Positions 13,910 through 30,453 of a stretch of DNA of 64,000 nucleotides are shown piece by piece. Under the pieces are notes generated by a model. It had not been told where the DNA came from, ran no database searches, and saw only the letters and a list, made by a program, of their open reading frames with translations. Made by a program: the position numbers and the translations under genes. The stretch comes from a phage, in NCBI GenBank assembly GCA_024613925.1, contig GCA_024613925.1_4713.1; one strand, 5' to 3'. How positions within the stretch are numbered: the stretch's first letter is position 1; the number at the start of each line of letters is the position of its first letter.

Positions 13910-14263
13910 TTAAGGTTTAGGTTCCGTTTTGTGTTGTGCGAGTAGTGTGTTGATCTGCTCCCGTTGTTCTTTTAAGCATGCAGGAAGCTGGTCTTCCCGT
14001 ACCGTTCCGATTTCCAACGTGATGTACCAGCGTTGTTCGGAAGCCTGCCATTGAAAACTGCTCTGTAACCGCAGGATGTTAGGATCACGTACCTTGTTTG
14101 CGCTGTAGCGGTTGAACCAATCCAGGTAAGCGGCTTTTCCTTCATCATCGGCAACGTAACGCTGCACGCTGTTCTTGCCTTTGTTCTCGTATCCTGTTGT
14201 ACGTATCATGCGAACGTTTCTCCTGTAACGTGTTGTGGATGGCGTAGCATGGTAGCATCCCAT
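13910..14263 (-). CDS. hypothetical protein (small, early-type cassette)
   Basis: 117-aa ORF; true start probably internal (MIRTTGYENKG) just after the stop of 14206..14988. Confidence 0.4.
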   Translation of the reverse strand: MGCYHATPSTTRYRRNVRMIRTTGYENKGKNSVQRYVADDEGKAAYLDWFNRYSANKVRDPNILRLQSSFQWQASEQRWYITLEIGTVREDQLPACLKEQREQINTLLAQHKTEPKP

Positions 14264-14988
14264 TGTACGATCCGGCTCCGGCTTACCCGCATCATGATGG
14301 ATTCATCGTCAAGCCCTGGTTGTGCAACCGGCAACCAACGTTCGTTAAGCACCTTCGCTTCAACGCGTTTCTTGCGGGGATTGTAACGCACCTCGCTGAC
14401 CCAAGCAAATCCAAGTGGATGCACAACCCGTGGATAATACATGCGAAGCAATTGATGCATCCGATCCGTTGCCTCCAAGCTCGCATCCGCCAGGTAAGGT
14501 TTCACCATGGTAAGCTTTTTGGTGTAATACGTTCCAACGGTATGGTTACGCCAACTTGGCAAGGCATGATCCCCTTCTCTCAGTTTGCTATCCGGGTTCA
14601 TCGGCCAGACCTGCTGTTTACCGGCCAGCATCGCGTACTGCCGATCAACGCAACGAACCTGATCGGCGAACAATGGATCCAGAACATCATCCACCGCACC
14701 CTTATTGCGATAACCGTGATGTACCACCAACCTGCTTGCGCTCATCGATGCGGGATGCTGGCTCTTATGCGCATACAGCCCTCCGTCACCGCGAGCGTCG
14801 TAAAGATAACCGCATGCGCCACGCCATATCACCTTGCCTACGGTTCTCTCGTTTTCAAGCAGCATCGTCGGCCCATCAAGCAAATTGGTGAACCACTGCA
14901 CCTTCACGCATTCCGCTTGGACATGCTCGGGTAATGCCTGATACTCTTTTTGGGTGTATAAGGTATCAAAAATGATTTCATCGTTCAT
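14206..14988 (-). CDS. hypothetical protein (first gene of early-type cassette)
   Basis: 260-aa ORF; promoter-like motif copy B about 85 nt upstream; the fully overlapping plus ORF 14263..14934 looks like its antisense shadow. Confidence 0.5.
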   Translation of the reverse strand: MNDEIIFDTLYTQKEYQALPEHVQAECVKVQWFTNLLDGPTMLLENERTVGKVIWRGACGYLYDARGDGGLYAHKSQHPASMSASRLVVHHGYRNKGAVDDVLDPLFADQVRCVDRQYAMLAGKQQVWPMNPDSKLREGDHALPSWRNHTVGTYYTKKLTMVKPYLADASLEATDRMHQLLRMYYPRVVHPLGFAWVSEVRYNPRKKRVEAKVLNERWLPVAQPGLDDESIMMRVSRSRIVQWDATMLRHPQHVTGETFA

Positions 14989-15062
14989 CTAAAAAGTTCC
15001 TCTGTTTCACGTTAATTAAACAACGTATTGATTTCTGGTAACGATAACATCACTAGGTTTGT

Positions 15063-15090
15063 CATCACTAAGGTAATATAGTCGTGAAAG
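15063..15090 (-). promoter_or_regulatory. conserved promoter-like motif, copy B (minus reading TTTCACGACTATATTACCTTAGTGATGA)
   Basis: near-identical to copies A, C and D; partially duplicated (catcactagg 10 nt upstream); heads the 8-gene cassette. Confidence 0.55.
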
Positions 15091-15546
15091 GATTTGTGTT
15101 ACAGCGAGGGGTTTTGTTGTTTTTAAGAAGGGATGGATTTAGAAGAGGTGTTTCAAGGAAGGTAAACGAGGATAGGTATTTTGATTTAAGTAATTAAGTA
15201 AGATGTTATCTGTATTCGTTAAAAGTGTATTGTCTATCTTAAGTTATGTCTTATTGTTTAATCGTTTAATATTTTTATCTAAATAGGTTTAACTCTATCT
15301 TGTTTGTGTATTTAAATTAATTTAAAAAGCTTATCTTCAAAACAATGGATAACATGTGTTTACTACCTTAACGGTAACACATGTCATCTGTGCATTACAC
15401 TTCGTTACATGCTAGTTAAATCCGGATAACTCAAAAAACATTTGTGATACTCTTCTTCACGTTGTTCATCAGAGTATCTCGTCTATACTCATTGCATTCG
15501 TATACGACATAACCGTTATACGCTAACGCTACGCTTATAGCTTGAT

Positions 15547-15610
15547 AACTCTAAGGATAAAAACATAAACTCGCTTCGCTCGTTTAGTTTTTCTTTTTCT
15601 TAGAGTTATC
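15547..15610. repeat. 12-bp perfect inverted repeat (GATAACTCTAAG / CTTAGAGTTATC) separated by about 40 nt
   Basis: read directly; the spacer holds a smaller TAAAC/GTTTA hairpin. Confidence 0.6.
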
Positions 15611-15777
15611 CTGTTGCTCGTCTCTAAAGGACTTCGCTCCTCCCCCGTCCCCCGAAGGGGCCGAGGTCGTGGAAATTTTACTTTCCAAATACATTTACAA
15701 CATCTGTAAACTTTTACTCCAGGTACTTAATCTTATCATTAGAAATTATAAAAGAGAAGAATAAACACAAACATAAA

Positions 15778-15809
15778 CCTTCCTCCAACCCAACAGGGAA
15801 GGAGGAAGG
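15778..15809 (-). terminator. intrinsic terminator, CCTCC/GGAGG-arm hairpin family
   Basis: ccttcctcc-aacccaacagggaa-ggaggaagg; minus strand continues GGTTTATGTTTGTGTTTATT; 15 nt downstream of the stop of 15824..16723. Confidence 0.7.
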
Positions 15810-15823
15810 GGGATTAATTAAAA

Positions 15824-16723
15824 TTATACGGGAGCGTAAACGTTATAACCGAATACGGCTTTACCGTAGGTGTGAGTACCGTCAGCTAACGACAGCACCA
15901 GCACATTGCCGTACGTAACGTTAACGCCCTTGTCGGTAGACTCGAGGGTATCACCGTTATAGACAAAGGTAGCTGTTTGCAGATTGGCTTTCAGTTCATT
16001 AATGATATCATCACTTACACCAGTCTGTTCTTTGATCAGCGTAGTCAGGTTACCTGCCAGGCTTGCATCGATCTTGGTGTCGTTACTGGTAATAGCTTGT
16101 AAAGCTACAGTGTAGGTGCTGAAGTCTAACGGATAGGTTAACAGACGTGCTGACGTTTTGGTACCATCGCCTTCATCAACGTAGGTTAAGTTACCCAGGT
16201 TGGTAACCTTGATGATGTTAGCCAGATCCAGCGTGGTGTTATAAACTTTAACTTGAACAGAGCCATACCACGCCAACGAATCTTCTTTGGCTTCCAGGGT
16301 GATCGTCTGGATACCATGCTCGTCGAAGGTAACCGGCGTAGTTAACGTTTCGGCTTTGATGTCTTTATCTTTATCCAGGAACTTCTCACCGGAAGGTGTG
16401 ATCATACCGTAGCGTTGAGCTACAAGGTCAACCACGTCACCAATAGTGGTGTTCGCATTAACGTTAACACGTACGGCGATCTTCTGGAACCACTTAGCCA
16501 GATCCAGACGATGGTAGGTAACATCGCGTTCATTGAAGTAAGGGGTACCTTCACCTGGGCTAAGCGTTAAAGTTGCTTCTGGAGCAGAAGGATTCTTTTC
16601 TTTAAGGACGTATTTAAGGTCGGTGTATTTGAAGCTGGCACCAGTATCGGCGTTGAGTTTGTTAATCTCATCAACGATAAGTTGCCATGGTGTTTTTAAA
16701 GTAAGCGATACTTGAGCTGTCAT
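15824..16723 (-). CDS. paralog family A member (P1), probable abundant structural protein
   Basis: 299 aa; shares ordered motifs with 27780..28685, 29602..30453, 30464..31399 and 16766..17407 (Y.HRLDLA, LAWYGSV, C-terminal GNVLVLSLADG). Confidence 0.55.
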   Translation of the reverse strand: MTAQVSLTLKTPWQLIVDEINKLNADTGASFKYTDLKYVLKEKNPSAPEATLTLSPGEGTPYFNERDVTYHRLDLAKWFQKIAVRVNVNANTTIGDVVDLVAQRYGMITPSGEKFLDKDKDIKAETLTTPVTFDEHGIQTITLEAKEDSLAWYGSVQVKVYNTTLDLANIIKVTNLGNLTYVDEGDGTKTSARLLTYPLDFSTYTVALQAITSNDTKIDASLAGNLTTLIKEQTGVSDDIINELKANLQTATFVYNGDTLESTDKGVNVTYGNVLVLSLADGTHTYGKAVFGYNVYAPV

Positions 16724-16765: not shown

Positions 16766-17407
16766 GTGTTTACAGAAATTAATATATTTTATATTAGTGT
16801 GAATAGTATGGAGAACGACTCCGAATCTCCTTTTCGACCATCAAAAATCAGAGGACACATAATCATGGCCTTAGACTTTAACAAAGCAGCGAAATCCCTT
16901 CTGCTTGATCTTATCAACACCAAAGCAACCCGTGCACTGTCCGAAGAAGAACTGCAGTTCGGTACTCCGCAGACGTCTTCCGAACATTCTAAGAACACCG
17001 TTATTCAGCTGGACGCTGCGCCTGAAGCAGCTAACCTGCAGGGTAGTCAGCAGTTCTACTACGATCGTCTGGCTCTGTCCGAAGTTTTCGCTGATGTAAC
17101 CGGCGATGTTACTTTCGAACTGCCGCACGGTACCGACAGCATCCAGGCTTCTGAACTGGTAAGCAAGCTAGTCACCAAATTCGGCCTGGCTTCCCTGACC
17201 GGTGAAATCCAGGAAGAAACCTTCCAGCTGTCTGCAGGTACTGTTGGTCAGGTAACCCTGACTGCGATCGAGGGTGGCATGGTATATACCGGCACTCTGC
17301 AGGTTGCACTGACCTATGCAGCAGCACCGAAAGACCAACTGGCAACCGTTCTGGCGGATAACGTAGCTGATGGCTTCGTGAAACCGACCGTTAGCGCTGT
17401 TGGCTAA
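16766..17407 (+). CDS. paralog family A member (P2, short form)
   Basis: FYYDRLALSEVF and MVYTGTLQVAL motifs; likely true start MALDFNKAAK (about 16865), giving about 180 aa; divergent from P1. Confidence 0.5.
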   Translation: MFTEINIFYISVNSMENDSESPFRPSKIRGHIIMALDFNKAAKSLLLDLINTKATRALSEEELQFGTPQTSSEHSKNTVIQLDAAPEAANLQGSQQFYYDRLALSEVFADVTGDVTFELPHGTDSIQASELVSKLVTKFGLASLTGEIQEETFQLSAGTVGQVTLTAIEGGMVYTGTLQVALTYAAAPKDQLATVLADNVADGFVKPTVSAVG

Positions 17408-17606
17408 TAAGCACATAGAGCAATAGTATGGGTTTTGTACAGCTCGGCTATTGCTCTTCTACAATTTGGTTGTAACAATCTGCGTGGTTGCACGCTTATC
17501 TTTCTCATTGAGCGCTTCGTATGAAGCGCGGTGTTGAAAGGGTTGTGGATCTCCTCAAGCGGCCAGGGACCCAGACCAACCTGAATAAACACGAACACCT
17601 GTTAAG

Positions 17607-17655
17607 CCCCTCCTCATCCGTTATTGGGTGAGGAGGGGTCTTATACGTCTTTATG
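17607..17655 (+). terminator. intrinsic terminator (13-bp stem, 6-nt loop, U-rich tail), plus orientation
   Basis: cccctcctcatcc-gttatt-gggtgaggagggg followed by tcttatacgtctttatg; same arm composition as the minus-strand hairpin family. Confidence 0.7.
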
Positions 17656-17701: not shown

Positions 17702-18337
17702 TTACTCAACACTGAACCCGTTCAAACGAATAGCTTCATAACGCTTACGTTCACGACGTTTACGTGCCTGCCAACCGTAGATGAATTTCTCGTCTTTCTC
17801 ACGACGTTCAGCTAATTCGATGTAGTAAGTGCTCTGCATATCCAGCATCGCGTCGATGAGATAATCTTTACCGGTTTCTCCGCGTTTAGCGATGTAAGCG
17901 TCGAGTACGCCTAACGTCGCAGGTCCCATCAAACCGTCGGCGTTGATATCTTTCCAGTAAGTTTGACGGTTGTTCATGACGTTAAGGTAACGCTGGAGGT
18001 TCTTAACCGCAACCGTTTTACCTGCATTGATACCCAGGTCAAAGAGACGGTCAGCTAAGAACACAGAACGTTTCATGACTTCATCAAGCTTCATCTTATC
18101 CCAGAAGTGAGTCTTGTAGATAAAGAACGCCATTTCCGTGGTAAGGTTACGCATGTTACCGTCCCACCCGAATTTCGTTTTCAGTGTGGTTTTGTATTGT
18201 TCCGCCAAAGCTTGCGTCACGCCGTGGTTTGTGATTCCGCCCGAATCATCGGGATCGTCGACGTAACCTGCTTCGATGCTAGTTTTGTCACGAATTATGA
18301 ATTCGCAGGTAAAATCTTTTTCTGTAATCTTAGCCAT
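17702..18337 (-). CDS. GH108-family lysozyme-like peptidoglycan hydrolase
   Basis: N-terminal IEAGYVDDPDDSGGITNHGVTQ matches the E-G-Y-x-D-P-x-D-x-G-G-x-T-x-x-G-(I/V)-T core of GH108 lysozymes; 211 aa. Confidence 0.6.
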   Translation of the reverse strand: MAKITEKDFTCEFIIRDKTSIEAGYVDDPDDSGGITNHGVTQALAEQYKTTLKTKFGWDGNMRNLTTEMAFFIYKTHFWDKMKLDEVMKRSVFLADRLFDLGINAGKTVAVKNLQRYLNVMNNRQTYWKDINADGLMGPATLGVLDAYIAKRGETGKDYLIDAMLDMQSTYYIELAERREKDEKFIYGWQARKRRERKRYEAIRLNGFSVE

Positions 18338-18437
18338 TAGAACTCCTCGTTGGAATAACGATTTAGAGGAACTGGAAGGGTCTAGAACGCGATAAACGAT
18401 TTAATCCAGGCAAACCCCAGGTTAAACTTTTCTAAGC

Positions 18438-18449
18438 GTTACAACGCGT
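18438..18449. promoter_or_regulatory. 12-bp perfect palindrome CGTTCTAGAACG, with a related half-site about 45 bp upstream
   Basis: read directly in the leader region of the lysozyme-like gene; operator-like symmetry. Confidence 0.35.
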
Positions 18450-18463
18450 TCTAGAACGTTGAA

Positions 18464-20512
18464 TTAAATACCCTTGGTTCCTTTCACGTGATGTGCGATT
18501 TCTTCAACCATTGCACGCAGAGCACGAAGCTGTTGGTCGTGTTCGTACCAACCGCCTAACAGAACCCCGCTATACACCATGGTGTCAAGACTTAACAGCC
18601 CTTTATCTGATACGTTGATCATTTCAGGGAACTGTTCTTGAACACGCTGTGCAATAACACCGATCTTCTCGACATCAGGATCGTAGTTGTGACGGAAACG
18701 GGCAAGCCCACTGCGTGCCATTTCACGTAAACGATCGCTAAGAGATTCTGGATGATCTTTCAGATAACGGATGTCATGTTTACTACGCTCGTCTGAACGG
18801 ATGTAAGCGTTAGGGACATCGATGTTGCTGTTGAAGTACAGCGCGCTACCACCACCTGCAGAGTTCCCCCAATAGAAGCGAGTGATCTCACCGCCACCAT
18901 TCTCCGTGATGATAACATGTTTACCTAAACGCGTACCACCATTACCATCAACGAAGACCAGTTTGTTTCCGCTGTAAGAACCCCAGAACAAGCGCGTATC
19001 GATGATGTGCGTTGCAGCGAGACGGGCGTTACGTGGTGTAGAATACACGGTGTTAACATCTTGCTGAGCATGTGCATCGGAAGCGATACCATAGTTCTGT
19101 ACGTTACCCAACCCAACCTGCGCTTTCGTAACAGCGTGAGGGTTGTCTCGACGGTTAGCGTGAGCGTTAACCAGATCGCCCGCTAATTTCTGAATTGCCC
19201 AGTTGGTAGACTGCGGTGTCATGTAACGGTTAGTTGCAGAACCACCTTGCGCTTCAGCTTGGTTAGCGGTTGGATAGTTCTCAACACTTCCTAACCCTAC
19301 TTGTGCTTTAGACACTTGGTGTGGGTTATTCTTGTCAGCGATGTGTGCATTAAGCGGAACTAACGCAAAGGTCTCAATGGACGCTTTGGTTGTGTTCGGT
19401 GCCATTAATCGGTTAGCTGCAACCCCGGCACGCGCTTCTTCTTCAGAAGCCATCGGATAGTCTTGCACATTCCCTAATCCCACCTGGGCTTTCGTTACCC
19501 TGTGTGGGTTGTTATAATCGGCTTTGTGTGCATTAAGTGGAATCAATGCGAACTGTTCAATTGCTGCAACGGTACGTAGCGGTGTCATGAAACGGTTGTT
19601 CGCTGTTCCGGCTTTCGCCTCGTCATCCGAAGCAGTCGGGAAGTTATCAACGTTCCCAAGGTTAACCTGCGCTTTGGTGACGCTATGCGGGTTATCCCGA
19701 CGGTTAGCGTGCGCATCGACTAGATCGCCCGCCAGTTTAGCAATCGCCCATCCAACCGTTTGTGCGGTCATGTAACGGTCAGGTGCGGTACCGGCTTCTG
19801 CCTCCGCCTTGTTGGCGGTAGGATAGTTCTGTACGTTACCTAGTCCGACTTGGGCTTTTGTTACTTCGTGCGGGTTATCGGTACGGTTAGCATGCGCGTA
19901 ATGCAGATCGGTCAGATCTTTATCCGCTGCTTGCATATCTTTGCGTAGCTGATCGATTGCCGCCCAGAGACGGTTATCGGATGCAGCATCACCGATAAGT
20001 ATTGCGGCTTTCAGTGAATAGATCGCTAAGCAAAGATGTTCGGTACCGTAAATAGCACTAACGTGGTGGATGTGTGGTTCAGGCGGATAAAGTTCCGGTT
20101 TGTTCTTGATGTCATCCCAGTTGATCGGACGATCGTCAAGTTTGAGTTCTTCGATAGCCTGATATAACGCGTCAATAAGGCTTACGTAAACGCCACCGAT
20201 GATGCGATAGTCGTTAACTAACGTCCCCTCGATATCATCGTTGATAATGGCGATCGCCGCACAGATTTCTTTACCCGCGTAAAGCGTTGCATCCTGATAC
20301 AAGAAAATGGGTTTATAATCCACGCCTCGTACCAGTGTCTTACCGGTAAGCTTTTCAGTGATGACCAGACTTTCGGTGAAGAACGGTCCGCCATCGAGGG
20401 CGTAACATTTATTCTCGGTTCGTGGAACGGTGTGCTCTTCACCAACGATGTGGTTGCTATCGAGCGTGCCGGTCCAGTCCTCGGGGTACTTCAGGGTAAT
20501 TGGTGTTGACAT
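18464..20512 (-). CDS. tail fibre protein with about 61-aa repeats and C-terminal S74-type intramolecular chaperone domain
   Basis: five repeats of N-P-H-x-V-T-K-A-Q-V-(G/N)-L-G-N-V-x-N-(Y/F); C-terminal S-D-E-R-S-K (Ser-Lys dyad pattern of auto-cleaving fibre chaperones) and GVLLGGWYEHDQQLRAL. Confidence 0.7.
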   Translation of the reverse strand: MSTPITLKYPEDWTGTLDSNHIVGEEHTVPRTENKCYALDGGPFFTESLVITEKLTGKTLVRGVDYKPIFLYQDATLYAGKEICAAIAIINDDIEGTLVNDYRIIGGVYVSLIDALYQAIEELKLDDRPINWDDIKNKPELYPPEPHIHHVSAIYGTEHLCLAIYSLKAAILIGDAASDNRLWAAIDQLRKDMQAADKDLTDLHYAHANRTDNPHEVTKAQVGLGNVQNYPTANKAEAEAGTAPDRYMTAQTVGWAIAKLAGDLVDAHANRRDNPHSVTKAQVNLGNVDNFPTASDDEAKAGTANNRFMTPLRTVAAIEQFALIPLNAHKADYNNPHRVTKAQVGLGNVQDYPMASEEEARAGVAANRLMAPNTTKASIETFALVPLNAHIADKNNPHQVSKAQVGLGSVENYPTANQAEAQGGSATNRYMTPQSTNWAIQKLAGDLVNAHANRRDNPHAVTKAQVGLGNVQNYGIASDAHAQQDVNTVYSTPRNARLAATHIIDTRLFWGSYSGNKLVFVDGNGGTRLGKHVIITENGGGEITRFYWGNSAGGGSALYFNSNIDVPNAYIRSDERSKHDIRYLKDHPESLSDRLREMARSGLARFRHNYDPDVEKIGVIAQRVQEQFPEMINVSDKGLLSLDTMVYSGVLLGGWYEHDQQLRALRAMVEEIAHHVKGTKGI
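19010..19900 (-). repeat. in-frame tandem repeat array (5 units of about 185 bp) inside the tail fibre gene
   Basis: recurring ...gtgnggGTTnTc...cggttagcgtg... at DNA level and NPHxVTKAQVGLGNV at protein level; boundaries approximate. Confidence 0.6.
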
Positions 20513-20525
20513 AACCTGGAGGTCC

Positions 20526-23120
20526 TTATAACGTGACTGTACCTAATTTGGTTGTCTTATTGAGATTAATGACAGAGATCTGGGTATCGCTGGTCGTAAT
20601 CGTTCCGATATTAACGCGCTGTCCTTTATCATCCTCTTGCTTATGGATGGTTAACTCCAGCTCTAGCTGGTCACCGTTAGGAACAACGGAAACGTACCAT
20701 GTTTTATTACCTGGTGAGCTATTATAGTTTTTTAGGTTATAATGGCCTTTAGGTAAGGTCATGGCCTTACCGGCAAACAAGCAAGTGATGTCTTCGTTGA
20801 TGTAGATATCGTAACCGGAAGCAGCAACGACCGTAGAAACCATGTAGACATGTTTGACGGTACCTGCGAGGTATTCGGCTACGCTTGGCCCATATGCTCT
20901 GAATACCTGTCCGCCATTGGATAAACGGTACGCTTCCCCAAGGTCAACGTACCCCAGACCCCATACCGGATGGACGTTGTAACGACGTCCGCTGCTGGCC
21001 AAATACTCATAAAGCTCATCTACCGATAACCCAACCCACGCACCACTGGCGTTCTTAGCACCACGGAATTGAAAATCGTTTGCGTTTCCTGGAGTAGCAA
21101 CGCGCACGGACATCGCCCCGGCGATTAACCAGCCATCAGCGCATTTACGATACCCTAATGGTCCCCACGCCCCCAGAGTGTTATCAATGTTATTGATTTG
21201 GTCCCGAGGCGTGTAAGTTACCGTTGTGACGACCCCCGTTACGGTAATGTTCCCTTCCCGAGCGCTAGTCGTTACTTCAGACGTCATGATAGCCGCCTTC
21301 CTGGAGACAGGATCGTACACCGATATGAACATCAAGCAGGGGGCCCCTGTGGACGCTGGAGGAACCACGATAGAGCCGCGTATAACGGAGTATCTCTCAA
21401 GCTTCGGCGACGTGTAGGTATCCCAACAAAGTTTGGCCGCTCTGTCGAGTTCTGCCTGCGTGATGCTTATCGATGCCCCCTTTAAGGCTAACGTATCAGG
21501 GTCGACCTCAACCCTGCTGCTTAATCTCCCTTCCTGTAACCAGCTACCAGTCACTATCGTCTGGTCGTCGCTCATGTGAATTGTCGCGAAACGTTCGCTC
21601 ACTGAACCGCCTACGTGGACGCGACTGGTTGGCGGGAATCCCGTCACATCGACCACGCTGTTCTTATAGCGATAACTCAAATCCCAATCAGTGGTTATTA
21701 ACCGCTTTTCGAAATTGCTCTGACCCCCTGGGATGCGGGATAAGACATAGACCTTGTTCTTCGCCGTGAAGCCAACGAAGCCGTGTGGACCACAGGACCC
21801 AACAACGCGGTCCATGATGTTAATCCAGCCCCCCACCTCGTACGCGGATATTGGGGTGAGTTTCGCAAGTTCGTCGAAGACATTACCAGCGTAGTCACCA
21901 ATGCGATACGATCGAACCATCGGCGAGGCCAGGTTATCATTCACACAGCTGGTAACCAGACCGTCCTCGCGAATGACCATGTTCCCGGTAAGGTTGCCCC
22001 CACCCCATGCCCAGAATCCGTCTTTATAATCACGGTCACGAGTTGACATCGTACAAGGGCCACGAAAGGACACCGAACCATCGGAGTTCACTTGTAATGA
22101 CGGCGTTCCAGCATTGGGACTTAATGTCCATTGCTTCGTATCCAGGTTCAAATCGACGTACCAGATCGTTGTCCCCTGATCGGCGATATTCGCGGTACTG
22201 TTAGTGTACCATGCCGTCGTACAGTAGATTCGCGCAATGTTACCTCTTACAACAGCGTAATTTCTAACACCCGCACGAATAGGGATAAGCGTCGTTAATT
22301 GACTAGGGTACGCTGTATGGTTTAACACTTCCCAGAAAAGAATATGGTCGAGGTTAGTTTTCGTCGTTCCCTCAAAAATCTTTCCACTAAACCCGGTTTC
22401 TTTGGTGAACTGTACAGCCGCACCATTTTTAATGTCCGATAACATACAGGTATGTACATCGAGTCCGTTTTTCCCTTCATGCGCCCACCAGACTAACAGG
22501 TACACTTTGTTTTTGTAGACGAACGTACTACAGCGCGCCATGCTGTCGGTAATACCCTCTACCGACCCGGTACACATGGCGGCGACATGCTTCTCTACGT
22601 TGAATGTGCCGTTAGTCAGAACGATGTATGGCTGTGTGTTCTCGTCGTTTTCGTCCATCGCGACACCCATCATCACACCGTGGTTATGACACCAGACCGA
22701 TTGTGGGATTTTAGGTAGTGCTGTAGGGTTGTACTGGCGACTGGTACCTATGGCGGTATCGAGCAGCCCTTCACCATTGTTTTTACAGATAGCGTAATAC
22801 ACCCCGTTTTTCATGCTGTTGGATGCAGAGCGAAGGATGGAAACACTCCCGTCTGCTTCCTGACAGATTCCGTAGGTACGACGTTCGGTCATGGCTATCG
22901 CGCCATCAGCTGACCCTTCGATGGCGAGAGGGAAGTAACTTTGATCGCCAATTTGTTCGATATCGGTTACGTCAATATCAATGTACTTTTCCATCTCGGT
23001 GTTGAACTCTGCAGTGCTGTACGCGCCGAGATCGCCAGCCTTTAACCCTGTTGGATTGCTTCGACTAGCGATACGTTCGGTAACGCTGGTCACCAGTTCG
23101 CTAAATTTTTTCATTGCCAT
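20526..23120 (-). CDS. large tailspike-like or fibre-associated protein
   Basis: 864-aa ORF embedded between two fibre genes; Gly/Ser/Thr/Asn-rich composition typical of receptor-binding proteins; no specific catalytic motif recognised. Confidence 0.5.
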   Translation of the reverse strand: MAMKKFSELVTSVTERIASRSNPTGLKAGDLGAYSTAEFNTEMEKYIDIDVTDIEQIGDQSYFPLAIEGSADGAIAMTERRTYGICQEADGSVSILRSASNSMKNGVYYAICKNNGEGLLDTAIGTSRQYNPTALPKIPQSVWCHNHGVMMGVAMDENDENTQPYIVLTNGTFNVEKHVAAMCTGSVEGITDSMARCSTFVYKNKVYLLVWWAHEGKNGLDVHTCMLSDIKNGAAVQFTKETGFSGKIFEGTTKTNLDHILFWEVLNHTAYPSQLTTLIPIRAGVRNYAVVRGNIARIYCTTAWYTNSTANIADQGTTIWYVDLNLDTKQWTLSPNAGTPSLQVNSDGSVSFRGPCTMSTRDRDYKDGFWAWGGGNLTGNMVIREDGLVTSCVNDNLASPMVRSYRIGDYAGNVFDELAKLTPISAYEVGGWINIMDRVVGSCGPHGFVGFTAKNKVYVLSRIPGGQSNFEKRLITTDWDLSYRYKNSVVDVTGFPPTSRVHVGGSVSERFATIHMSDDQTIVTGSWLQEGRLSSRVEVDPDTLALKGASISITQAELDRAAKLCWDTYTSPKLERYSVIRGSIVVPPASTGAPCLMFISVYDPVSRKAAIMTSEVTTSAREGNITVTGVVTTVTYTPRDQINNIDNTLGAWGPLGYRKCADGWLIAGAMSVRVATPGNANDFQFRGAKNASGAWVGLSVDELYEYLASSGRRYNVHPVWGLGYVDLGEAYRLSNGGQVFRAYGPSVAEYLAGTVKHVYMVSTVVAASGYDIYINEDITCLFAGKAMTLPKGHYNLKNYNSSPGNKTWYVSVVPNGDQLELELTIHKQEDDKGQRVNIGTITTSDTQISVINLNKTTKLGTVTL

Positions 23121-23132
23121 TATTCACCTCAG

Positions 23133-23618
23133 TTAAATCGGCGAATCAGGTAATTGACCATCGACAATCTCGATAGTGGCCACTTTACGTGTCGCAGCAA
23201 GATGCGCTGTGCCCTGAACTTTGTTCCAGGTACCGATACGCATCACGTTTTTATAGCTGCTGTTACTGTCGCTCAATGTGTAAACAAAACCGTTATCCGT
23301 GACAGCAAGATAGATCCAACCGGTTGATGCGCTAACACCAGAAACATCCAACGTGGTCGCGGGAACCGTTCCTGTTATCGTGTTGTATTCCGCTTCACCT
23401 TGGCCGATGCTGATCCTCCCGTTGTTGTAGCTGGCTGCTGGAATTATTTTATTTCGGCTGAAGAAAAGGAACGGAAGATAACGTTGTGTAACAAGAGGCG
23501 TAAGTTTAGGAGCCACTTCTGTCTTAGCGTACACGTTTGTCTGCGTCGTTGTTACTGAATGAGGATTCTTCTTGGCCAGGTAGGCTCCCCATTCAGAAAG
23601 CAATGTCGATAACTTCAT
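23133..23618 (-). CDS. small fibre-like protein (possible distal fibre tip)
   Basis: 161 aa; N-terminus KKNPHSVTTTQTNVYAK resembles the NPH-VT-AQ fibre repeat. Confidence 0.4.
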   Translation of the reverse strand: MKLSTLLSEWGAYLAKKNPHSVTTTQTNVYAKTEVAPKLTPLVTQRYLPFLFFSRNKIIPAASYNNGRISIGQGEAEYNTITGTVPATTLDVSGVSASTGWIYLAVTDNGFVYTLSDSNSSYKNVMRIGTWNKVQGTAHLAATRKVATIEIVDGQLPDSPI

Positions 23619-23622
23619 ACGG

Positions 23623-24138
23623 CTACCCCATGTAACGTTTTTGGCCGAGGATAAAGACCTTGTTAAGGACCACCGAGGTAATGCCTGACGCGTTGCAACT
23701 CACCTGCCCAACACGAATAGCTGTTGATGAATCAGCCCCAGCACTACTGTTCCAACTCCAGCCGACCGACCCACCTTTCTGATGAATAAACAGATATCCG
23801 GTTTTGTTTGCCCAGTCGGAAGTAAGATTTTTGATGTCTAGCGTTCCTTTCGCCAGAATATAGTCGGTACCGGCGATCATGACGGGGATTTCAGGATACG
23901 AGATTACCGTACCGCTAGCAGTAACATTGCTGATGCGATCACTACGGATATCGGTACAGTCACCGAAATACGCTACGGGGAGTATCCCCTTAGGGAGCTT
24001 TTTGCCGATTTTCGTATCGACCGTGCTTTTATCGGGTGCGTCGATTTGCGCTGCAGTGACTTGGTTGGGGTTATCCTTCCTTGTGTACCATGTCGTCATG
24101 CGAGCACCCAACTCACTCATTTTTGTGCCCATTTTCAC
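23623..24138 (-). CDS. small fibre-like protein (possible distal fibre tip)
   Basis: 171 aa; N-terminus RKDNPNQVTAAQIDA resembles the fibre repeat. Confidence 0.4.
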   Translation of the reverse strand: MKMGTKMSELGARMTTWYTRKDNPNQVTAAQIDAPDKSTVDTKIGKKLPKGILPVAYFGDCTDIRSDRISNVTASGTVISYPEIPVMIAGTDYILAKGTLDIKNLTSDWANKTGYLFIHQKGGSVGWSWNSSAGADSSTAIRVGQVSCNASGITSVVLNKVFILGQKRYMG

Positions 24139-24166
24139 GTCCTATCGAAAAATAAAAAGATGGAAA

Positions 24167-24183
24167 GGTGGGTAGAACCCACC
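24167..24183 (-). terminator. short hairpin with minus-strand U-tract (probable terminator after the fibre gene)
   Basis: ggtggg-tagaa-cccacc; minus strand continues TTTCCATCTTTTTATTTTTCG. Confidence 0.5.
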
Positions 24184-24189
24184 CATCCG

Positions 24190-26343
24190 TTATAACGTTT
24201 CGAAGTCTTTTGCCTTGATGACCGCGTTGAAGTTGGCAAGGAATTCCTTAAGTAATGCTTGGAAAACATCGCGGAACGCCGCGTTCGTCTTCAAGCTGGT
24301 TAAATAATCGTTCTTAAGGTAATCACTCAGCTTACCGATCTTCTGCATCTTCTCGCCGTCTTGGTTCTCTCCAGGTTCTTGGCTGTTGATGTTAACCCAT
24401 TTGATCCCTTCGAGATCGCCATCGGCAAGGAAGTTAGCGGGTGTCTCATCATCGTTCAGGATTTTAATTGTATCACTGGATTCAATGCCGCCGTAAGCTT
24501 CCAGAAGCTGGTTGATGGTCAACTTATTGACGTTGATTGAACCATTGACACCATCGATAACGATGCCTGCACCTGTGATAGACGTTGCTGAAAGATCGAT
24601 TGGTCCGGTTAACTTACCCCCATTGATAGGGAGCGCACCGACTTGTTCGGCTGTGTGCGTATGATCGGCTAACGCCGCGAACGCTGCAATCGACTTGTAA
24701 GTCGAGTACGGTGTCATGTACGCTGTCTGGTTAGTCCTGTCAGCAGCTTGCACATCGGTGGCGACAGCAAAGTCCTGTACGTTCCCTAACCCCACTTGTA
24801 CCTTGGTTACTTCATGCGGGTTACTCTTATCGACAACGTGTGCTGCAAAACCATCACCTGCTAAAGCGATGATCGCTGCTTTTGTCGCAGCCGGTGTCAT
24901 ATAGCGGTTGGTCGCTACACCTGTTTGTGCTTCCACATCAGAAGCAACGGGATAGTTCTCAACGCTTCCCAACCCCACCTGCGCCTTGGTGACCCTGTGT
25001 GGGTTCTCGGTATTTGCGATGTGGCTACTGAACCCCTGACCAGCCATTTGCTCGATTGCATAACGAACAAGTATTGGTGTCATGTACTTGTTGTTAACCT
25101 GACCGTCGATAGCTTCTTGGGTAGTAGCAACCCCAAAGTTCTGCACGCTTCCCAGACCGACTTGGGCTTTGGTCACCCCATGTGGGTTGTTGGTGTTACC
25201 GATATGTTCGGTTACGGTTGGGGTGATTAACGCTGCGATGGCGGCTGCTGTGGTTGCAGGCGTCATGTATTTGTTGTTAGCAACACCCGCACCGGCTTCT
25301 GTGTTAGATGCTAAACCAAAGTCCTGCACATTACCTAACCCAACTTGGGCTTTGGTCACCCCATGTGGGTTGCTCTTGTTTCCGGTATGGGCTGTCAGCG
25401 AAGCATTAACGTTATCGATACGCGTACTTAAGCCATCAGTGATTGCTTTGATTGCTGCTCGTACACCCGCTGGAGTTGTGTACAGATTAGTGGCCGTACC
25501 GGTAATGGTTGCATTACTATCGGCTACACCGTAGTTCTCAACGTCCCCGAGTCCCACCTGGGCTTTGGTCACCTTGTGTGGGTTGTTGCGGTTACTGATG
25601 TGTGCGGCGGCACTATCACCACTAAGGTTAGCGATCATCTTACGCGTCATCGCCAACGTCATGTACAGATTTTCACCAACGGTTTCCAGATCGCTCTCGG
25701 TCGCTGTTGTGAAGTTCTGCACGTTCCCCAACCCAACCTGGACTTTCGTAACGCCGTGGGGATTATCGCGTCGATTCTCATGCTGCACTAACGCAGTCAT
25801 TGCTTTATTGAACCCTTCTTCAAGCGGTTCTTTCAATGATTCGATTGCCGCCACCACATCGTCCCACGTCATTGTGTCGGTTTCGACATTATGTTGGTGG
25901 TTGATTGGTGGGAATACGGAAGGAACGTCAGCAACCTTTTCCCAGAACGTAATGCGGGGGTCGTAGAGGTTGTTGGCTAAAACGTTAAGAATTTGTTGTT
26001 GATCAAGTGTAAACTCACCCCCCAGTGAATAGTAGTTCAGTTGCAACTGTCCACTGAATGCGGTGTCCAACAGCATGATGGAACCGTATAATTCCAGGCC
26101 GGTCAGCGCAGCCATGGCACGGAAGGGGTGAGTGCATAAAAAGTCAACGCCTTCTTCCAGATACGCGTTTGTTTCAGGGTTGTAGATCTTTAACCCATTA
26201 CGAAAATATGGCGCGTATTTAGGAACGAGAAAGTTAAATCCGGTCCCCGTGGAAGGACGGACAGTGACGAGTTCTTCTGGAACCCATGCGCCATCCAAAT
26301 TCCCCTGCGGGTTATACGGAAGGCGTTTAATTTCATCTGTCAT
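24190..26343 (-). CDS. tail fibre protein with NPH-VTKAQVGLGNV repeats
   Basis: 717 aa; at least 7 repeats of N-P-H-(G/K/R/E)-V-T-K-(A/V)-Q-V-G-L-G-(N/S/D)-V-(Q/E)-(N/D)-(F/Y), the same repeat type as 18464..20512. Confidence 0.7.
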   Translation of the reverse strand: MTDEIKRLPYNPQGNLDGAWVPEELVTVRPSTGTGFNFLVPKYAPYFRNGLKIYNPETNAYLEEGVDFLCTHPFRAMAALTGLELYGSIMLLDTAFSGQLQLNYYSLGGEFTLDQQQILNVLANNLYDPRITFWEKVADVPSVFPPINHQHNVETDTMTWDDVVAAIESLKEPLEEGFNKAMTALVQHENRRDNPHGVTKVQVGLGNVQNFTTATESDLETVGENLYMTLAMTRKMIANLSGDSAAAHISNRNNPHKVTKAQVGLGDVENYGVADSNATITGTATNLYTTPAGVRAAIKAITDGLSTRIDNVNASLTAHTGNKSNPHGVTKAQVGLGNVQDFGLASNTEAGAGVANNKYMTPATTAAAIAALITPTVTEHIGNTNNPHGVTKAQVGLGSVQNFGVATTQEAIDGQVNNKYMTPILVRYAIEQMAGQGFSSHIANTENPHRVTKAQVGLGSVENYPVASDVEAQTGVATNRYMTPAATKAAIIALAGDGFAAHVVDKSNPHEVTKVQVGLGNVQDFAVATDVQAADRTNQTAYMTPYSTYKSIAAFAALADHTHTAEQVGALPINGGKLTGPIDLSATSITGAGIVIDGVNGSINVNKLTINQLLEAYGGIESSDTIKILNDDETPANFLADGDLEGIKWVNINSQEPGENQDGEKMQKIGKLSDYLKNDYLTSLKTNAAFRDVFQALLKEFLANFNAVIKAKDFETL
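24710..25775 (-). repeat. in-frame tandem repeat array inside the second tail fibre gene
   Basis: recurring ccccatgtgggttg / ccttgtgtgggttg DNA units at about 180-bp spacing; boundaries approximate. Confidence 0.6.
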
Positions 26344-26447: not shown

Positions 26448-27728
26448 ATGTATACATTGGTAAAAACTTACGGGTTACCCGTAGGTTCTGGCACGGCCTG
26501 GACAGCGCTTGAGGCGGGTGAAAGTGTCCTGAGTACGTTGTTCTCAACGTATCAAAAACTCAAGATCCAGGTCCATGAAAGCTATGCTGACCAGCAACAA
26601 GTTATTGATCTGTACACATTTCAATCCGAGCTTCAAAACAGCAGTGATACGCTCAATGCGTGGTTGAAAGCGAAATCGGATGCACATACCAACCTTCGCG
26701 GACAGCCTGGTGAGCTGTCGATTAAAACTCACAAGCTTTATTGTCATGACGCTATTACGGTAGGCTTTCTCCCTAAAGTCGGTAATAGCGGTTATCATCC
26801 GAGCAATGCGATCCCTGAGTCGGAACGCACTGATATCCTGTTGACGAAAGCGAATACGAATTACGAAAATATCGGCAAACACTGCTTGTTCACCGTAGGC
26901 GGTTATGTTCATCCTCACGTCTACGGTAAAGACGTTGGTGTCTATATCCAGGGTGGGTTCAAGACGGCACAGCGTAGCCAAGAAAACGATATCGGCATGA
27001 TTGATTTTAGCCGTATCGGGAGTTTGGAAATTCATGCTATCACAGAAGAGATGATTGCTGATTCCACGAAGCTCTTGCCGTATAAGGACGAGATGTACTT
27101 GCGGTTACCGCGCAAGGTCGCCGAAGATGAAACCGTCGCGCTGGTGTTCGGGGGATATTTACATCTTCTTGACGATTGTTACACGATCGTTAGCGACACG
27201 ACAGCGAAAATAAACTGCATTAACATGTTTCTCTATGAACGATACTTCCGTTCCCGCAAATACCTTGATCTAACATCTCTTGGTATTCTGTTGAACGAAG
27301 AAGACCCGCAGTCCGACATTGTTGCCAATCGTTTATTGTCCGATAAAGCATTAAAAGCGTGGGTGACGCATCCTTGCAGTTTCTGGGTGTATATCAAAGC
27401 AACATCGATTCAGGTTACGCAAGAACCTTTACCACGAAGTGGCGTACCAGGACAGTATTTCTTAGGTAAGAAACCGGAAGGACTGATTCGAGCCGATCTC
27501 GGCGAGTTACCGGCTTACGTACAGACCTATGAAAAACCGTTATGGGTACTTCACTCGCGCTGGGGACTTCGTAAGAACATGTTGTTTGAAAATACGTTGT
27601 ACAAACATACGCGCGTTAAGCGGCTTAACGATACGCCTTATCTTCACCAGGTCTGGTTGGAAACGCATGCGACGTTGCAGACAGTACACAAGCTCGAATT
27701 GATCGATTCCAGTCAGAAAAACAAATAA
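26448..27728 (+). CDS. hypothetical protein
   Basis: 426-aa ORF; SD-like aagggggcc upstream of ATG; followed by hairpin 27739..27770. Confidence 0.5.
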   Translation: MYTLVKTYGLPVGSGTAWTALEAGESVLSTLFSTYQKLKIQVHESYADQQQVIDLYTFQSELQNSSDTLNAWLKAKSDAHTNLRGQPGELSIKTHKLYCHDAITVGFLPKVGNSGYHPSNAIPESERTDILLTKANTNYENIGKHCLFTVGGYVHPHVYGKDVGVYIQGGFKTAQRSQENDIGMIDFSRIGSLEIHAITEEMIADSTKLLPYKDEMYLRLPRKVAEDETVALVFGGYLHLLDDCYTIVSDTTAKINCINMFLYERYFRSRKYLDLTSLGILLNEEDPQSDIVANRLLSDKALKAWVTHPCSFWVYIKATSIQVTQEPLPRSGVPGQYFLGKKPEGLIRADLGELPAYVQTYEKPLWVLHSRWGLRKNMLFENTLYKHTRVKRLNDTPYLHQVWLETHATLQTVHKLELIDSSQKNK

Positions 27729-27779: not shown

Positions 27780-28685
27780 TTATGCTACATATAACGTTAG
27801 ATAACCATCGATGAGCGTATTCATCACACTAAGTTGAAGTACGACGGCTTTACTAACATCCGTACGCACGCCAAACGGTAGTGTTTTGAATTGCTCTGGA
27901 TCGGCTATTACTCTCGCATTCTGCAAGTTGAGTGGTCCAGGCATTGCTGACAGTACCCAGCGATCGTTGACCGTAAGACCGTCGATCTCTTCAGAGAGAC
28001 CCAATTGCAGCATGTTCATTTCTGCAATTAGTGCCTCCGATTGCGTATCACCTGAGGTTAACGTATAACCATCGGTAAGTGATGCCAGAACACCAGCAGA
28101 TACGAACCAGTTGTACGAAACAATAGCGCCTGGGAGTTTACTGCTATCTCGATCGATGATATAATTCAACCCAGCCAACATATTGTTGCGAACGAGGTTG
28201 TTGAGGTCGTTATGTCCTGAGGTTAACTCAACAAGTAACTGACCAACCCATACTTGGTTACCGGGTTTAGGTGTTATCACAACCTGTATCGGTGACTTGG
28301 ACTTATCCAGATCCGCGTCGACAATCTCGGTTTTGTTGAGAAGGATACCGTACGTCGATGCTAAGACAGGTAGGATCTCAGAAACCTTGGTTAATGCATC
28401 TAAGGTTTCGATCTCGATAGGCCAGCGGTGCTGTCCGCCAGACCAAGTACCCAGTTTACCAAGATCGATGCGGTTATAATAGATGTCGACAGAGTTCACC
28501 AGCCCTGAACCCGGTTGGGGATGCACGGTTAACTTGCTGTTACGCTTGTACCCTGTGCTTTCAGAAGCCTCACCGATAACCAGTTTATCCAGCGTTACGC
28601 CTCGAGCATCGAAATCGCTATGCTTTCGAATCAGCCGAAAGAGGATTTCTTTCGATTCTAACCCTAGGATTTCACTGTACTCCAT
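27780..28685 (-). CDS. paralog family A member (P3)
   Basis: 301 aa; motifs YKRNSKLTVHP, IYYNRIDLG, LPVLASTYGILL, DRWVLSAM shared with P1, P5 and P6. Confidence 0.55.
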   Translation of the reverse strand: MEYSEILGLESKEILFRLIRKHSDFDARGVTLDKLVIGEASESTGYKRNSKLTVHPQPGSGLVNSVDIYYNRIDLGKLGTWSGGQHRWPIEIETLDALTKVSEILPVLASTYGILLNKTEIVDADLDKSKSPIQVVITPKPGNQVWVGQLLVELTSGHNDLNNLVRNNMLAGLNYIIDRDSSKLPGAIVSYNWFVSAGVLASLTDGYTLTSGDTQSEALIAEMNMLQLGLSEEIDGLTVNDRWVLSAMPGPLNLQNARVIADPEQFKTLPFGVRTDVSKAVVLQLSVMNTLIDGYLTLYVA

Positions 28686-29601: not shown

Positions 29602-30453
29602 TCAGTTATATTGCATCAACAGGATACCGCCGTAGTTCGTGCAGTAATCTTGGCTAAGCGTAACGATAACAGCGTTAGCGAACGCTGGGTTAACAGGATA
29701 ACCCTGTGCGATAAGTTCTGTTGTTTTACCGGTCGCGAGCACGGTGGCTCCGTAAAGGTTGTTTTCATCTTCACGGCCGTTATACACCCACGGGGTTGGC
29801 GCAACGTTGTTGAATAAGCTAACCAATGCGCTTAAGTTACCACCAACTTTTAACCCAGCAAGATCGGAACGGATCGCTGTACAGTCTATGGCGTAACTGT
29901 AGACCAATGCCTGGATACGATTTGCGGTGTAGTACGGGAAATTGAGACCGGTCATCACCGTGGTCTTCATCATCCCCGCAATATCGTGGGCACTATCGAG
30001 GAGATAGAACGTAACACTTCCCGTCCAGGCCAATCCGGTTGTTTTCAACTCTACGGTGTGAGGGAACGGATATTCATCACCTCGTACAATCGGAGAATCG
30101 ACGCAGCTATCCTGATCGATAACGATACCGTACGTTGATTGAATCAGAGGGATAAGATCGTGCGTCGTTTTAACCCCGGCATCGATAGCAAGCTTCGGTT
30201 CCATTCCCAAGAAGAAGTCTTGGATAGGAATACGATCGTACCACACGTAGCTGCTTTCGCGGTATTGTGCTGGTGTTACTGTTGCCGAAGGCGATACCTT
30301 AGCGCGTGTGTTCCGTTTATACGCATGGTTTCCGTTTTCAGCAACGTCCGTGATATCAAGTGCATCGAAGTTAAAGTCGAAGTCAGGATTGGCTGTCTGA
30401 ATAAGTTCAGCGACCAGTACTTTAGGACTTTTGTTTAACAATTTCTGACTCAT
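29602..30453 (-). CDS. paralog family A member (P5)
   Basis: 283 aa; motifs YKRNTRAKVSP, VWYDRIPIQDF, LAWTGSV, PTPWVYN, QDYCTNYGGILL. Confidence 0.55.
   Translation of the reverse strand: MSQKLLNKSPKVLVAELIQTANPDFDFNFDALDITDVAENGNHAYKRNTRAKVSPSATVTPAQYRESSYVWYDRIPIQDFFLGMEPKLAIDAGVKTTHDLIPLIQSTYGIVIDQDSCVDSPIVRGDEYPFPHTVELKTTGLAWTGSVTFYLLDSAHDIAGMMKTTVMTGLNFPYYTANRIQALVYSYAIDCTAIRSDLAGLKVGGNLSALVSLFNNVAPTPWVYNGREDENNLYGATVLATGKTTELIAQGYPVNPAFANAVIVTLSQDYCTNYGGILLMQYN

Follow-up and report, generated by a model that had tools for sequence, protein, structure and literature searches.

We examined a putative tail-fiber locus at positions 17702 to 26343 of a 64,000-nucleotide (nt) stretch of phage DNA (contig GCA_024613925.1_4713.1 of assembly GCA_024613925.1), referred to as the window. 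The five open reading frames (ORFs) and the lysozyme-like ORF named in a preliminary description of this DNA are all present in place and size, all on the minus strand. In their order of expression, the genes encode a long fiber of 717 amino acids (aa) (fiber A, 24190 to 26343), a 169-aa protein (23623 to 24132), a 161-aa protein (23133 to 23618), an 864-aa protein (20526 to 23120), a second long fiber of 682 aa (fiber B, 18464 to 20512), and a 211-aa GH108 muramidase with a PG_binding_3 domain (17702 to 18337). Because the whole locus is on the minus strand, the lysozyme gene is the last of the unit and not the first, and the fiber genes, which had been placed downstream of it, lie upstream in the sense of transcription. 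The ORF of the first small protein spans 171 aa (23623 to 24138) and more likely begins at the ATG at 24132, which gives 169 aa, as in all homologs.

When the locus and the first 25 kb of the window were compared by megablast with 50,697 phage records, a single relative came back, Escherichia phage vB_EcoM_Goslar, with near-identical coordinates and 94.2% nt identity over 88% of these 25 kb. All 45 window proteins compared have their Goslar counterparts in the same order, and 42 of the 45 are 84 to 100% identical to them. Given the ~94% nt identity, the near-equal coordinates, and the collinearity of all 45 genes, the window is, judged by its sequence, the left 64 kb of the genome of a Goslarvirus (Chimalliviridae), a giant phage of Escherichia coli and Salmonella. 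Goslar itself is a nucleus-forming jumbo phage of the Chimalliviridae. Its orthologous locus, gp24 to gp29 (NC_048170, 17700 to 26350), is collinear and has the same six genes, annotated there as hypothetical or virion structural, with equal lengths except for the large protein (864 aa here versus 867 aa in Goslar). Protein identities are 93.6% for fiber A (gp29), 90.5% for the 169-aa protein (gp28), 84.5% for the 161-aa protein (gp27), 52% overall for the 864-aa protein (gp26), 99.3% for fiber B (gp25), and 92.4% for the muramidase (gp24). Near-identical Goslar-like contigs of ~235 to 250 kb are found in many isolate assemblies that are labeled Salmonella enterica (several serovars), E. coli (including O157), Shigella flexneri, and Enterobacter hormaechei, and one 236-kb contig, from a Salmonella Enteritidis assembly, encodes a protein 98% identical to the 864-aa protein. 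Goslarviruses associated with bacterial assemblies have already been published (237 genomes; PMC12768965). In the comparisons below, Goslar, L003 (the Goslar-like contig VNCB01000001 of GCA_014829495.1), and L006 serve as close relatives, and L007 and L009 represent distant lineages.

The two long proteins are tail fibers, as had been proposed. Their N-terminal domains share homology (24% identity, E = 1e-10) and end in a W..I..KP..FPP..H.H motif, with profile matches to the tail collar fiber 9d93 (E = 8e-9) and to the HxH motif of the R2 pyocin fiber. Both proteins match many PHROG tail-fiber families, both carry repeats of the type seen in T4 gp34 and gp12, and fiber B ends in an S74 chaperone. 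Their orthologs gp25 and gp29 are labeled tail fibers in the mass spectrometry (MS) of Goslar virions (10.64898/2026.04.21.720040). For the 717-aa protein, a single-sequence search of the PDB gave only a spurious match to ribosomal protein L18e, and Pfam and NCBIfam searches returned no family. By homology, fiber A consists of an anchor (aa 1 to 186), a repeat region (aa 187 to 560), and a conserved C-terminal region (aa 561 to 717); the repeats (24664 to 25785, minus strand) comprise six 61-aa NPH units, one of them at a spacing of 71 aa, and a degenerate HTHTAEQVGALP half-unit comes after them. Fiber B has five NPH units (aa 206 to 510; 18983 to 19897, minus strand), a short Gly-rich tip, and a Peptidase_S74 chaperone with an SDERSK motif (aa 573 to 682; 18467 to 18796, minus strand). 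Both fibers are presumably trimeric.

The S74 assignment comes from a PF13884 match over aa 573 to 631, whose 26.5 bits are barely over the gathering cutoff of 22, and the tip of fiber B aligns weakly with S16 gp37 (6f45), including the S-D-x-R-x-K motif. Ending in an S74 domain with SD.R.K, fiber B is like the endosialidase, T5 pb1, and S16 gp37 (PDB 6f45), whereas relatives use a separate Phage_tail_APC chaperone or none. The S74 domain is probably cleaved off after trimerization of fiber B; the part of the Goslar MS table that we consulted contained neither C-terminal gp25 peptides nor control peptides. In L007 and L009, the tips differ, with an Invasin/Big_1 domain on fiber A and non-S74 tips on fiber B. 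In L007 (3038 to 7949), fiber A ends in an Invasin_D3/Big_1 Ig-like domain. Fiber B carries six repeats there, of which three are almost the same, and in place of an S74 domain a separate Phage_tail_APC chaperone of 197 aa is encoded after it. The L007 fibers exemplify both the exchange of tips and chaperones and recent repeat duplication.

The sequence NPHxVTKAQVGLGNV is the core of the 61-aa (183-nt) repeat. We counted five copies in the 682-aa protein and six full copies plus a degenerate half-unit (DHTHTAEQVGALP) in the 717-aa protein, for which the earlier figures of about 5 and 7 were a fair estimate. The consensus of 33 units from three phage lineages reads aH.....NPH.vTKAQVGLG.V.N[FY]..At..eA..aG...n.yMTP..v..ai., and both His residues of H-x7-NPH are invariant in all 33, far above chance. 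A profile built from 24 units matches T4 gp34 (9x3r, E = 6.9e-4, five stretches; 5nxh) and gp12 (5iv5), with weak scores for the individual stretches; the likeness, as far as these alignments go, is one of motif. The T4 shaft motif matches the second half of the unit (vAT..EA.aGt...kYMTP..v), whereas the first half (H-x7-NPH-xVTKAQVGLGNV) has no PDB counterpart by sequence, and the unit of the window, at 61 aa, is longer. In T4, these motifs make up shafts of trimeric fibers attached to the baseplate, presumably as in the two fibers of the window. Neither Pfam nor NCBIfam has a model for the NPH unit. In a trimer, the two invariant His residues would add up to six per unit, which is the number for octahedral metal coordination, a speculative thought at present; T4 gp37 and the R2 pyocin fiber have HxH sites where His residues coordinate metal octahedrally.

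The preliminary description had read the shared repeat as homologous DNA for unequal or intergene recombination. On such a reading, recombination of the two long fiber genes would reshuffle the fibers and make the host range broad or switchable. Repeat number does vary between distant lineages (5 or 6 per fiber), neighboring units of L007 fiber B are very similar, and the differences among close relatives in the 717-aa protein are concentrated in the repeats (38 of 374 residues versus 2 of 186 in the N-terminal domain; the gp29 repeat region is 78 to 93% identical in nt between Goslar and the window). Also, a 30-nt identical stretch is shared by repeats 3 and 4 of the 717-aa gene (~25340 to 25384), is found in the lineage of the window only, and is missing in relatives; it looks like a short gene conversion. 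However, alignment of the units shows that they resemble each other as protein and not as DNA: over 183 nt, mean identity between units is ~52%, falling to ~35% at third codon positions, and the longest exact match between the 717-aa and 682-aa genes is 15 nt. Fiber A is 717 aa long and fiber B 682 or 681 aa in the window, Goslar, L003, and L006 alike, so repeat number has not changed recently among them, and a search for intragenome donors of each divergent patch of the 717-aa gene gave a convincing result only for the repeat-3/repeat-4 patch. Inverted repeats of at least 18 nt, as an invertible switch would need, were not found between 17000 and 27800, and no locus protein matched an invertase or reverse transcriptase in Pfam and PHROG searches; no sign of a Gin/Cin-type or DGR fiber switch was seen in these searches. 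Exchange is actually concentrated in the insert of the 864-aa gene, described below, which is free of repeats. We regard recombination between repeats as a most improbable basis of host range; judged by the alignments, the repeats represent an old shaft motif at the level of protein and do not serve as a substrate for recombination.

The two small proteins, initially taken to be fiber-like, turned out by hhalign comparison and by fold matching of an AlphaFold2 (AF2) model to be stand-alone paralogs of the "shoulder" domain of phage receptor-binding proteins (RBPs), as far as models can tell. An N-terminal helix and an NPN motif precede the predicted RBP-shoulder β-sandwich (aa 51 to 169) of the 169-aa protein. 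In the AF2 model, the C-terminal domain is predicted with a local distance difference test score (pLDDT) of 80 to 96 and the N-terminal 50 residues with low confidence, and the model rests on a shallow alignment because the homolog search returned only Goslar-like sequences. The best structural matches of the domain are members of the set of proteins with the RBP shoulder fold. The 161-aa protein is a paralog of the 169-aa protein (hhalign probability of 96.9%, E = 1.5e-10; homologous over its aa 3 to 131), and aa 70 to 165 of the 169-aa protein are homologous to aa 765 to 862 of the 864-aa protein (hhalign probability of 94.3%, E = 1e-7; blastp E = 5e-6). The N-terminal 55 to 60 residues of the three proteins align as well (E = 0.012 and 3e-5) and have a common pattern of helix, NP(H) motif, and helix. 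Pfam and NCBIfam searches found no family for the 161- and 169-aa proteins. The shoulder of the RBP ORF18 of lactococcal phage p2 has relatives in SPP1 gp22 and in TssK of the type VI secretion system, all with only 10 to 14% sequence identity to the shoulders of the window. In p2 ORF18, shoulder, neck, and head follow each other linearly, whereas the window has two stand-alone shoulders and one that is split by an insert of ~700 aa, in a jumbo myovirus.

The split shoulder is the 864-aa protein. Because both of its ends are homologous to the stand-alone shoulder proteins, it reads, on the models, as a shoulder domain interrupted by a ~700-residue insert with a β-propeller. The N-terminal shoulder part (aa 1 to 59; 22944 to 23120, minus strand) has helices at residues 2 to 18 and 36 to 46 and a degenerate NPT motif, and the C-terminal shoulder part (aa 765 to 862; 20535 to 20828, minus strand) is the β-sandwich. 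The insert between them (aa 76 to 750; 20871 to 22895, minus strand) is all-β with a predicted propeller fold, and the AF2 model covering it has a pLDDT of 86.7 and a predicted template modeling score of 0.80. The protein had been described as tailspike-like. Fold searches ruled out a right-handed β-helix tailspike of the P22 type; the body is no parallel β-helix but a propeller set into an RBP shoulder domain. Homologs of the 864-aa protein form a family of 320 cluster representatives, and tblastn found 105 phage records, mostly of Asteriusvirus, GAP32-like, and Eneladusvirus jumbo phages, at ~23% identity; there were no Pseudomonas phages among the organism or host names listed for these records (10 of 12 names). 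In other jumbo phages, a body of the 864-aa type occurs as a fusion, preceded by an NPH unit or by a long NPH-repeat fiber (~1,700 aa), from which it may be argued, by analogy, that the body belongs at the distal end of an NPH shaft.

Comparison of the locus across phages showed that the fiber tips and the body of the 864-aa protein have been exchanged between related phages. Of the 45 genes compared with Goslar, none is more divergent than the 864-aa gene. Nucleotide identity is 39 to 59% between ~22900 and ~20900 and rises sharply to at least 90% from ~20870. At the protein level, identity to gp26 is ~90% over residues 1 to 75, ~95% over residues 755 to 864, and 41% between them, the Goslar insert being a different allele. 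What is conserved at either end corresponds to the shoulder homology, and what has diverged in the middle corresponds to the insert. Among close relatives, identity is 36 to 41% for the insert, against 91 to 93% for the shoulder parts. Three insert alleles, 36 to 58% identical to each other, occur among phages whose shoulder parts are 91 to 93% identical, and the insert of the window is closest (52%) to that of a distant lineage whose shoulder is only 48% identical. This incongruence between insert and shoulder relationships indicates, at the level of alignments, that the insert has been exchanged between phages as a cassette, and it makes the insert the likeliest specificity determinant of the locus. 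Besides the 864-aa gene, only two genes of the window have diverged strongly from Goslar, the homologs of gp009 (58% aa identity; 4807 to 6036, minus strand) and gp021 (62%; 14206 to 14988, minus strand). Both encode hypothetical proteins and are read as further exchange hot spots.

What the propeller does can be read in more than one way. The best structural neighbors of the insert are glycan-active propeller enzymes, namely, GH130, GH43, and GH32 enzymes, sialidases, PL24, and the phi92 endosialidase, and the polar residues E88, R97, Y109, Y130, H178, and R297 are conserved across 60 homologs of ~17 to 20% identity. Both observations would suit a protein that is primarily a virion enzyme (a glycosidase, phosphorylase-like enzyme, or lyase) acting on O-antigen, capsule, or the core of the lipopolysaccharide (LPS), with alleles that track the substrate; the 864-aa protein would then be comparable to an endosialidase-type tailspike and not a pure binding protein. 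Searches of Pfam, NCBIfam, and PDB sequences gave no match to the 864-aa protein, even with a 60-sequence profile, and no GH130, GH43, GH33, or AAL family signature for the insert. A primarily enzymatic role is possible, and we hold it to be somewhat unlikely.

Alternatively, the three shoulder proteins, the large one included, might be structural parts of a peripheral baseplate ring with no role in receptor binding. The divergence of the insert would then reflect relaxed constraint or escape from host defenses that sense phage structural proteins, and host recognition would be left to the fiber tips and the neighboring DUF7941 proteins, which have carbohydrate-binding domains and have been proposed as host-recognition elements. 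Much peripheral baseplate density is left unassigned in the Goslar and phiKZ structures, and the insert alleles are not split by host genus: each of the three is present in assemblies labeled Salmonella, E. coli, and Shigella, and a simple link of allele to host genus was rejected. On the other hand, the divergence is limited to a discrete inserted module with sharp borders and an incongruent phylogeny, a pattern of cassette exchange that is typical of receptor-binding domains and not of drift. The fold of the insert is that of glycan-binding or glycan-cleaving propellers, and the same body occupies the distal end of ~1,700-aa NPH-repeat fibers of other jumbo phages. We consider a purely structural role doubtful.

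All six orthologs were detected by MS in purified Goslar virions (Table S4 of 10.64898/2026.04.21.720040). The average estimates per virion are ~87 copies of gp25, ~75 of gp29, and ~76 of gp24, while gp26, gp27, and gp28 are near-equimolar at ~13, 14, and 14 copies, about six-fold below the fibers; the copy numbers have an error of ~50%, and the preparation included non-virion contaminants. In the preliminary description, multiple receptor-binding proteins had suggested a branched adsorption apparatus or a broad, switchable host range. That the locus encodes proteins of the adsorption apparatus, with several plausible binders, agrees with the joint presence of the orthologs in the Goslar virion; that the small proteins are fibers does not hold, and a switch has no support, given the lack of inverted repeats and the occurrence of all the proteins together in the Goslar virion. 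The apparatus is multicomponent and displayed all at once, not switchable.

The near-equal numbers of gp28, gp27, and gp26 (~14, 14, and 13) also raise the idea that the 169-, 161-, and 864-aa paralogs assemble, in place of three homotrimers, into a 1:1:1 pseudo-threefold heterotrimeric shoulder with a single propeller head, in ~12 copies per virion, one for each peripheral fiber site. It is further suggested by the tight or overlapping spacing of the three genes, which is conserved in three lineages, by the N-terminal helix and NP(H) segment common to the paralogs, and by the way the 161-aa gene, and the 169-aa gene in its 3′ part, have diverged along with the 864-aa allele (~80% nt identity over 23800 to 22900). 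We offer this arrangement tentatively and think it unlikely; if true, an asymmetric, single-headed receptor binder on a split shoulder would be an unusual RBP architecture. A parallel would exist in phiKZ, which has twelve short peripheral fibers with a base built of three copies of gp131 and single copies of three paralogs, gp131 having a distal C-terminal seven-bladed propeller (PMC13250141). Like the shoulder genes, gp131 to gp135 are a chimallivirus tandem cluster of paralogs that share an N-terminal module, one of them with a distal propeller thought to contact the host. By this analogy, the phiKZ fiber base is a functional parallel to our locus. The NPH-repeat fibers of the window have no described counterpart in phiKZ, and no phiKZ chains were among the matches of our PDB searches with single sequences and profiles.

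From the gene structure, the homologies, the predicted folds, the mosaic divergence, and the presence of the orthologs in Goslar virions, we think it probable that the locus, as a module, equips the peripheral baseplate of a Goslar-like chimallivirus for host recognition, with two long fibers and a shoulder triad that has a specificity-setting insert. The two fibers would be trimers, each with a homologous N-terminal anchor ending in the HxH motif, 61-aa units forming the shaft, and a distal tip that is specific to the lineage. Each shaft unit would consist of a helix, the H-x7-NPH-xVTKAQVGLGNV segment, and a T4 gp34/gp12-type "AT..EA..G....YMTP" element, and the tip of the 682-aa fiber would fold with the help of its C-terminal S74 intramolecular chaperone. 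A tightly packed unit set apart by a hairpin would encode the three paralogs built on the shoulder fold of lactococcal phage RBPs and TssK, with the GH108 muramidase gene closing it. In the 864-aa protein, the ~700-aa propeller body would sit in a loop of the shoulder. The conserved shoulder, formed by the N- and C-terminal ends together, would dock the protein on the baseplate or on a fiber, and the propeller would face the cell, where it may bind, and possibly cleave, a surface glycan. Swapped as a cassette between phages, the insert would be the main determinant of specificity. The receptor of Goslar is the LPS outer core (GluII) according to a genome-wide screen, in which the RBP is listed as unknown (supplement of 10.64898/2026.04.02.716166).

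Several points weigh against a host-recognition module of this kind. No experiment ties any protein of the locus to a receptor, and our structure models cover monomers and not oligomeric state or docking partners. The N-terminal shoulder likeness of the 864-aa protein is weak taken alone (E = 0.012; hhalign probability of 3% for the 161-aa versus the 864-aa protein). To these are added the error and the contaminants of the Goslar MS data, the spread of each insert allele over three host genera, and rival candidates for host recognition next door. These are the DUF7941 genes that flank the locus on both sides (15824 to 16723, 16865 to 17407, 27780 to 28685, and 29602 to 30453; Goslar gp22, gp23, gp31, and gp33), whose Goslar orthologs are the proposed "fiber cloud" filament proteins. 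With DUF7941 genes on both flanks, the whole 15.8- to 31.4-kb region can be regarded as a host-recognition island.

The transcription unit is closed by a strong terminator hairpin 3′ of the muramidase gene (17603 to 17641, minus strand; −27.2 kcal/mol, z = −5.5), and the annotated Goslar terminator occupies the same place. A second, GC-rich hairpin with a U-tract lies directly 3′ of the fiber A stop codon (24150 to 24188, minus strand; −18.5 kcal/mol, z = −3.2) and looks, from sequence and folding energy, like a terminator or attenuator. In L007 (7947 to 8023) and L009 (7946 to 8036), where the upstream gene differs, a hairpin with a U-tract likewise immediately precedes the first small shoulder gene. 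Its position before the shoulder genes fits the about six-fold lower virion copy number of gp26 to gp28 relative to gp29 and leaves unexplained the high copy number of the 682-aa fiber, which is encoded downstream of it in the lineage of the window. The three shoulder genes are spaced 4 to 12 nt apart in the window and overlap in the distant relatives. The gene order in the two distant lineages is fiber A, fiber B, small 1, small 2, large, and muramidase. A scan for sigma-70 promoters found fewer sites than in shuffled sequences and is uninformative, since Goslar-like phages transcribe with RNA polymerases of their own.

The last gene of the unit encodes a GH108 muramidase (PF05838, E = 1.6e-20; PF09374, E = 3.6e-17) that also matches the endolysin family phrog_315. 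It is last in the fiber unit in all three lineages examined, and its Goslar copy number (~76) is similar to that of the long fibers. The protein may be a virion-associated wall hydrolase and not, or not only, a lysis enzyme; contamination of the preparation is also possible. Divergently transcribed from the locus is a 426-aa homolog of gp30 (26448 to 27728, plus strand; phrog_3337), 100% identical to Goslar and estimated at ~18 copies per Goslar virion. It is kept beside the fiber genes in all lineages and is a candidate fiber-attachment or baseplate protein. Between the gp021 and gp022 homologs lies an 835-nt stretch (14989 to 15823) with no ORF of at least 40 aa and a GC content of 34%, versus 47% for the window. 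It is also present in Goslar, with 72 to 100% identity in 100-nt bins, and may be a regulatory region or an uncharacterized RNA; an Rfam search of the whole window, this stretch included, gave no match.

Tail-fiber modules with several RBPs and domain swapping are a well-known kind, and the locus is a useful refinement and not a surprise, the window carrying a new insert allele within a known type of system. The tail fibers and the peripheral baseplate are the chimallivirus parts that were not fully built in the 2026 cryo-electron microscopy studies of Goslar and phiKZ; the Goslar maps do not resolve the fibers, and gp25 and gp29 are listed only as likely components (10.64898/2026.04.21.720040). 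For these parts, the locus supplies candidates and domain boundaries, namely, two gp34/gp12-like fibers with exchangeable tips and a shoulder triad with a propeller cassette, which is of practical value in assigning the unresolved chimallivirus fibers. At least three insert alleles exist among otherwise near-identical Goslarviruses, and the insert could serve as a marker with which to predict or engineer host range among the 237 Goslarvirus genomes that are known from assemblies of Salmonella, E. coli, and Shigella.

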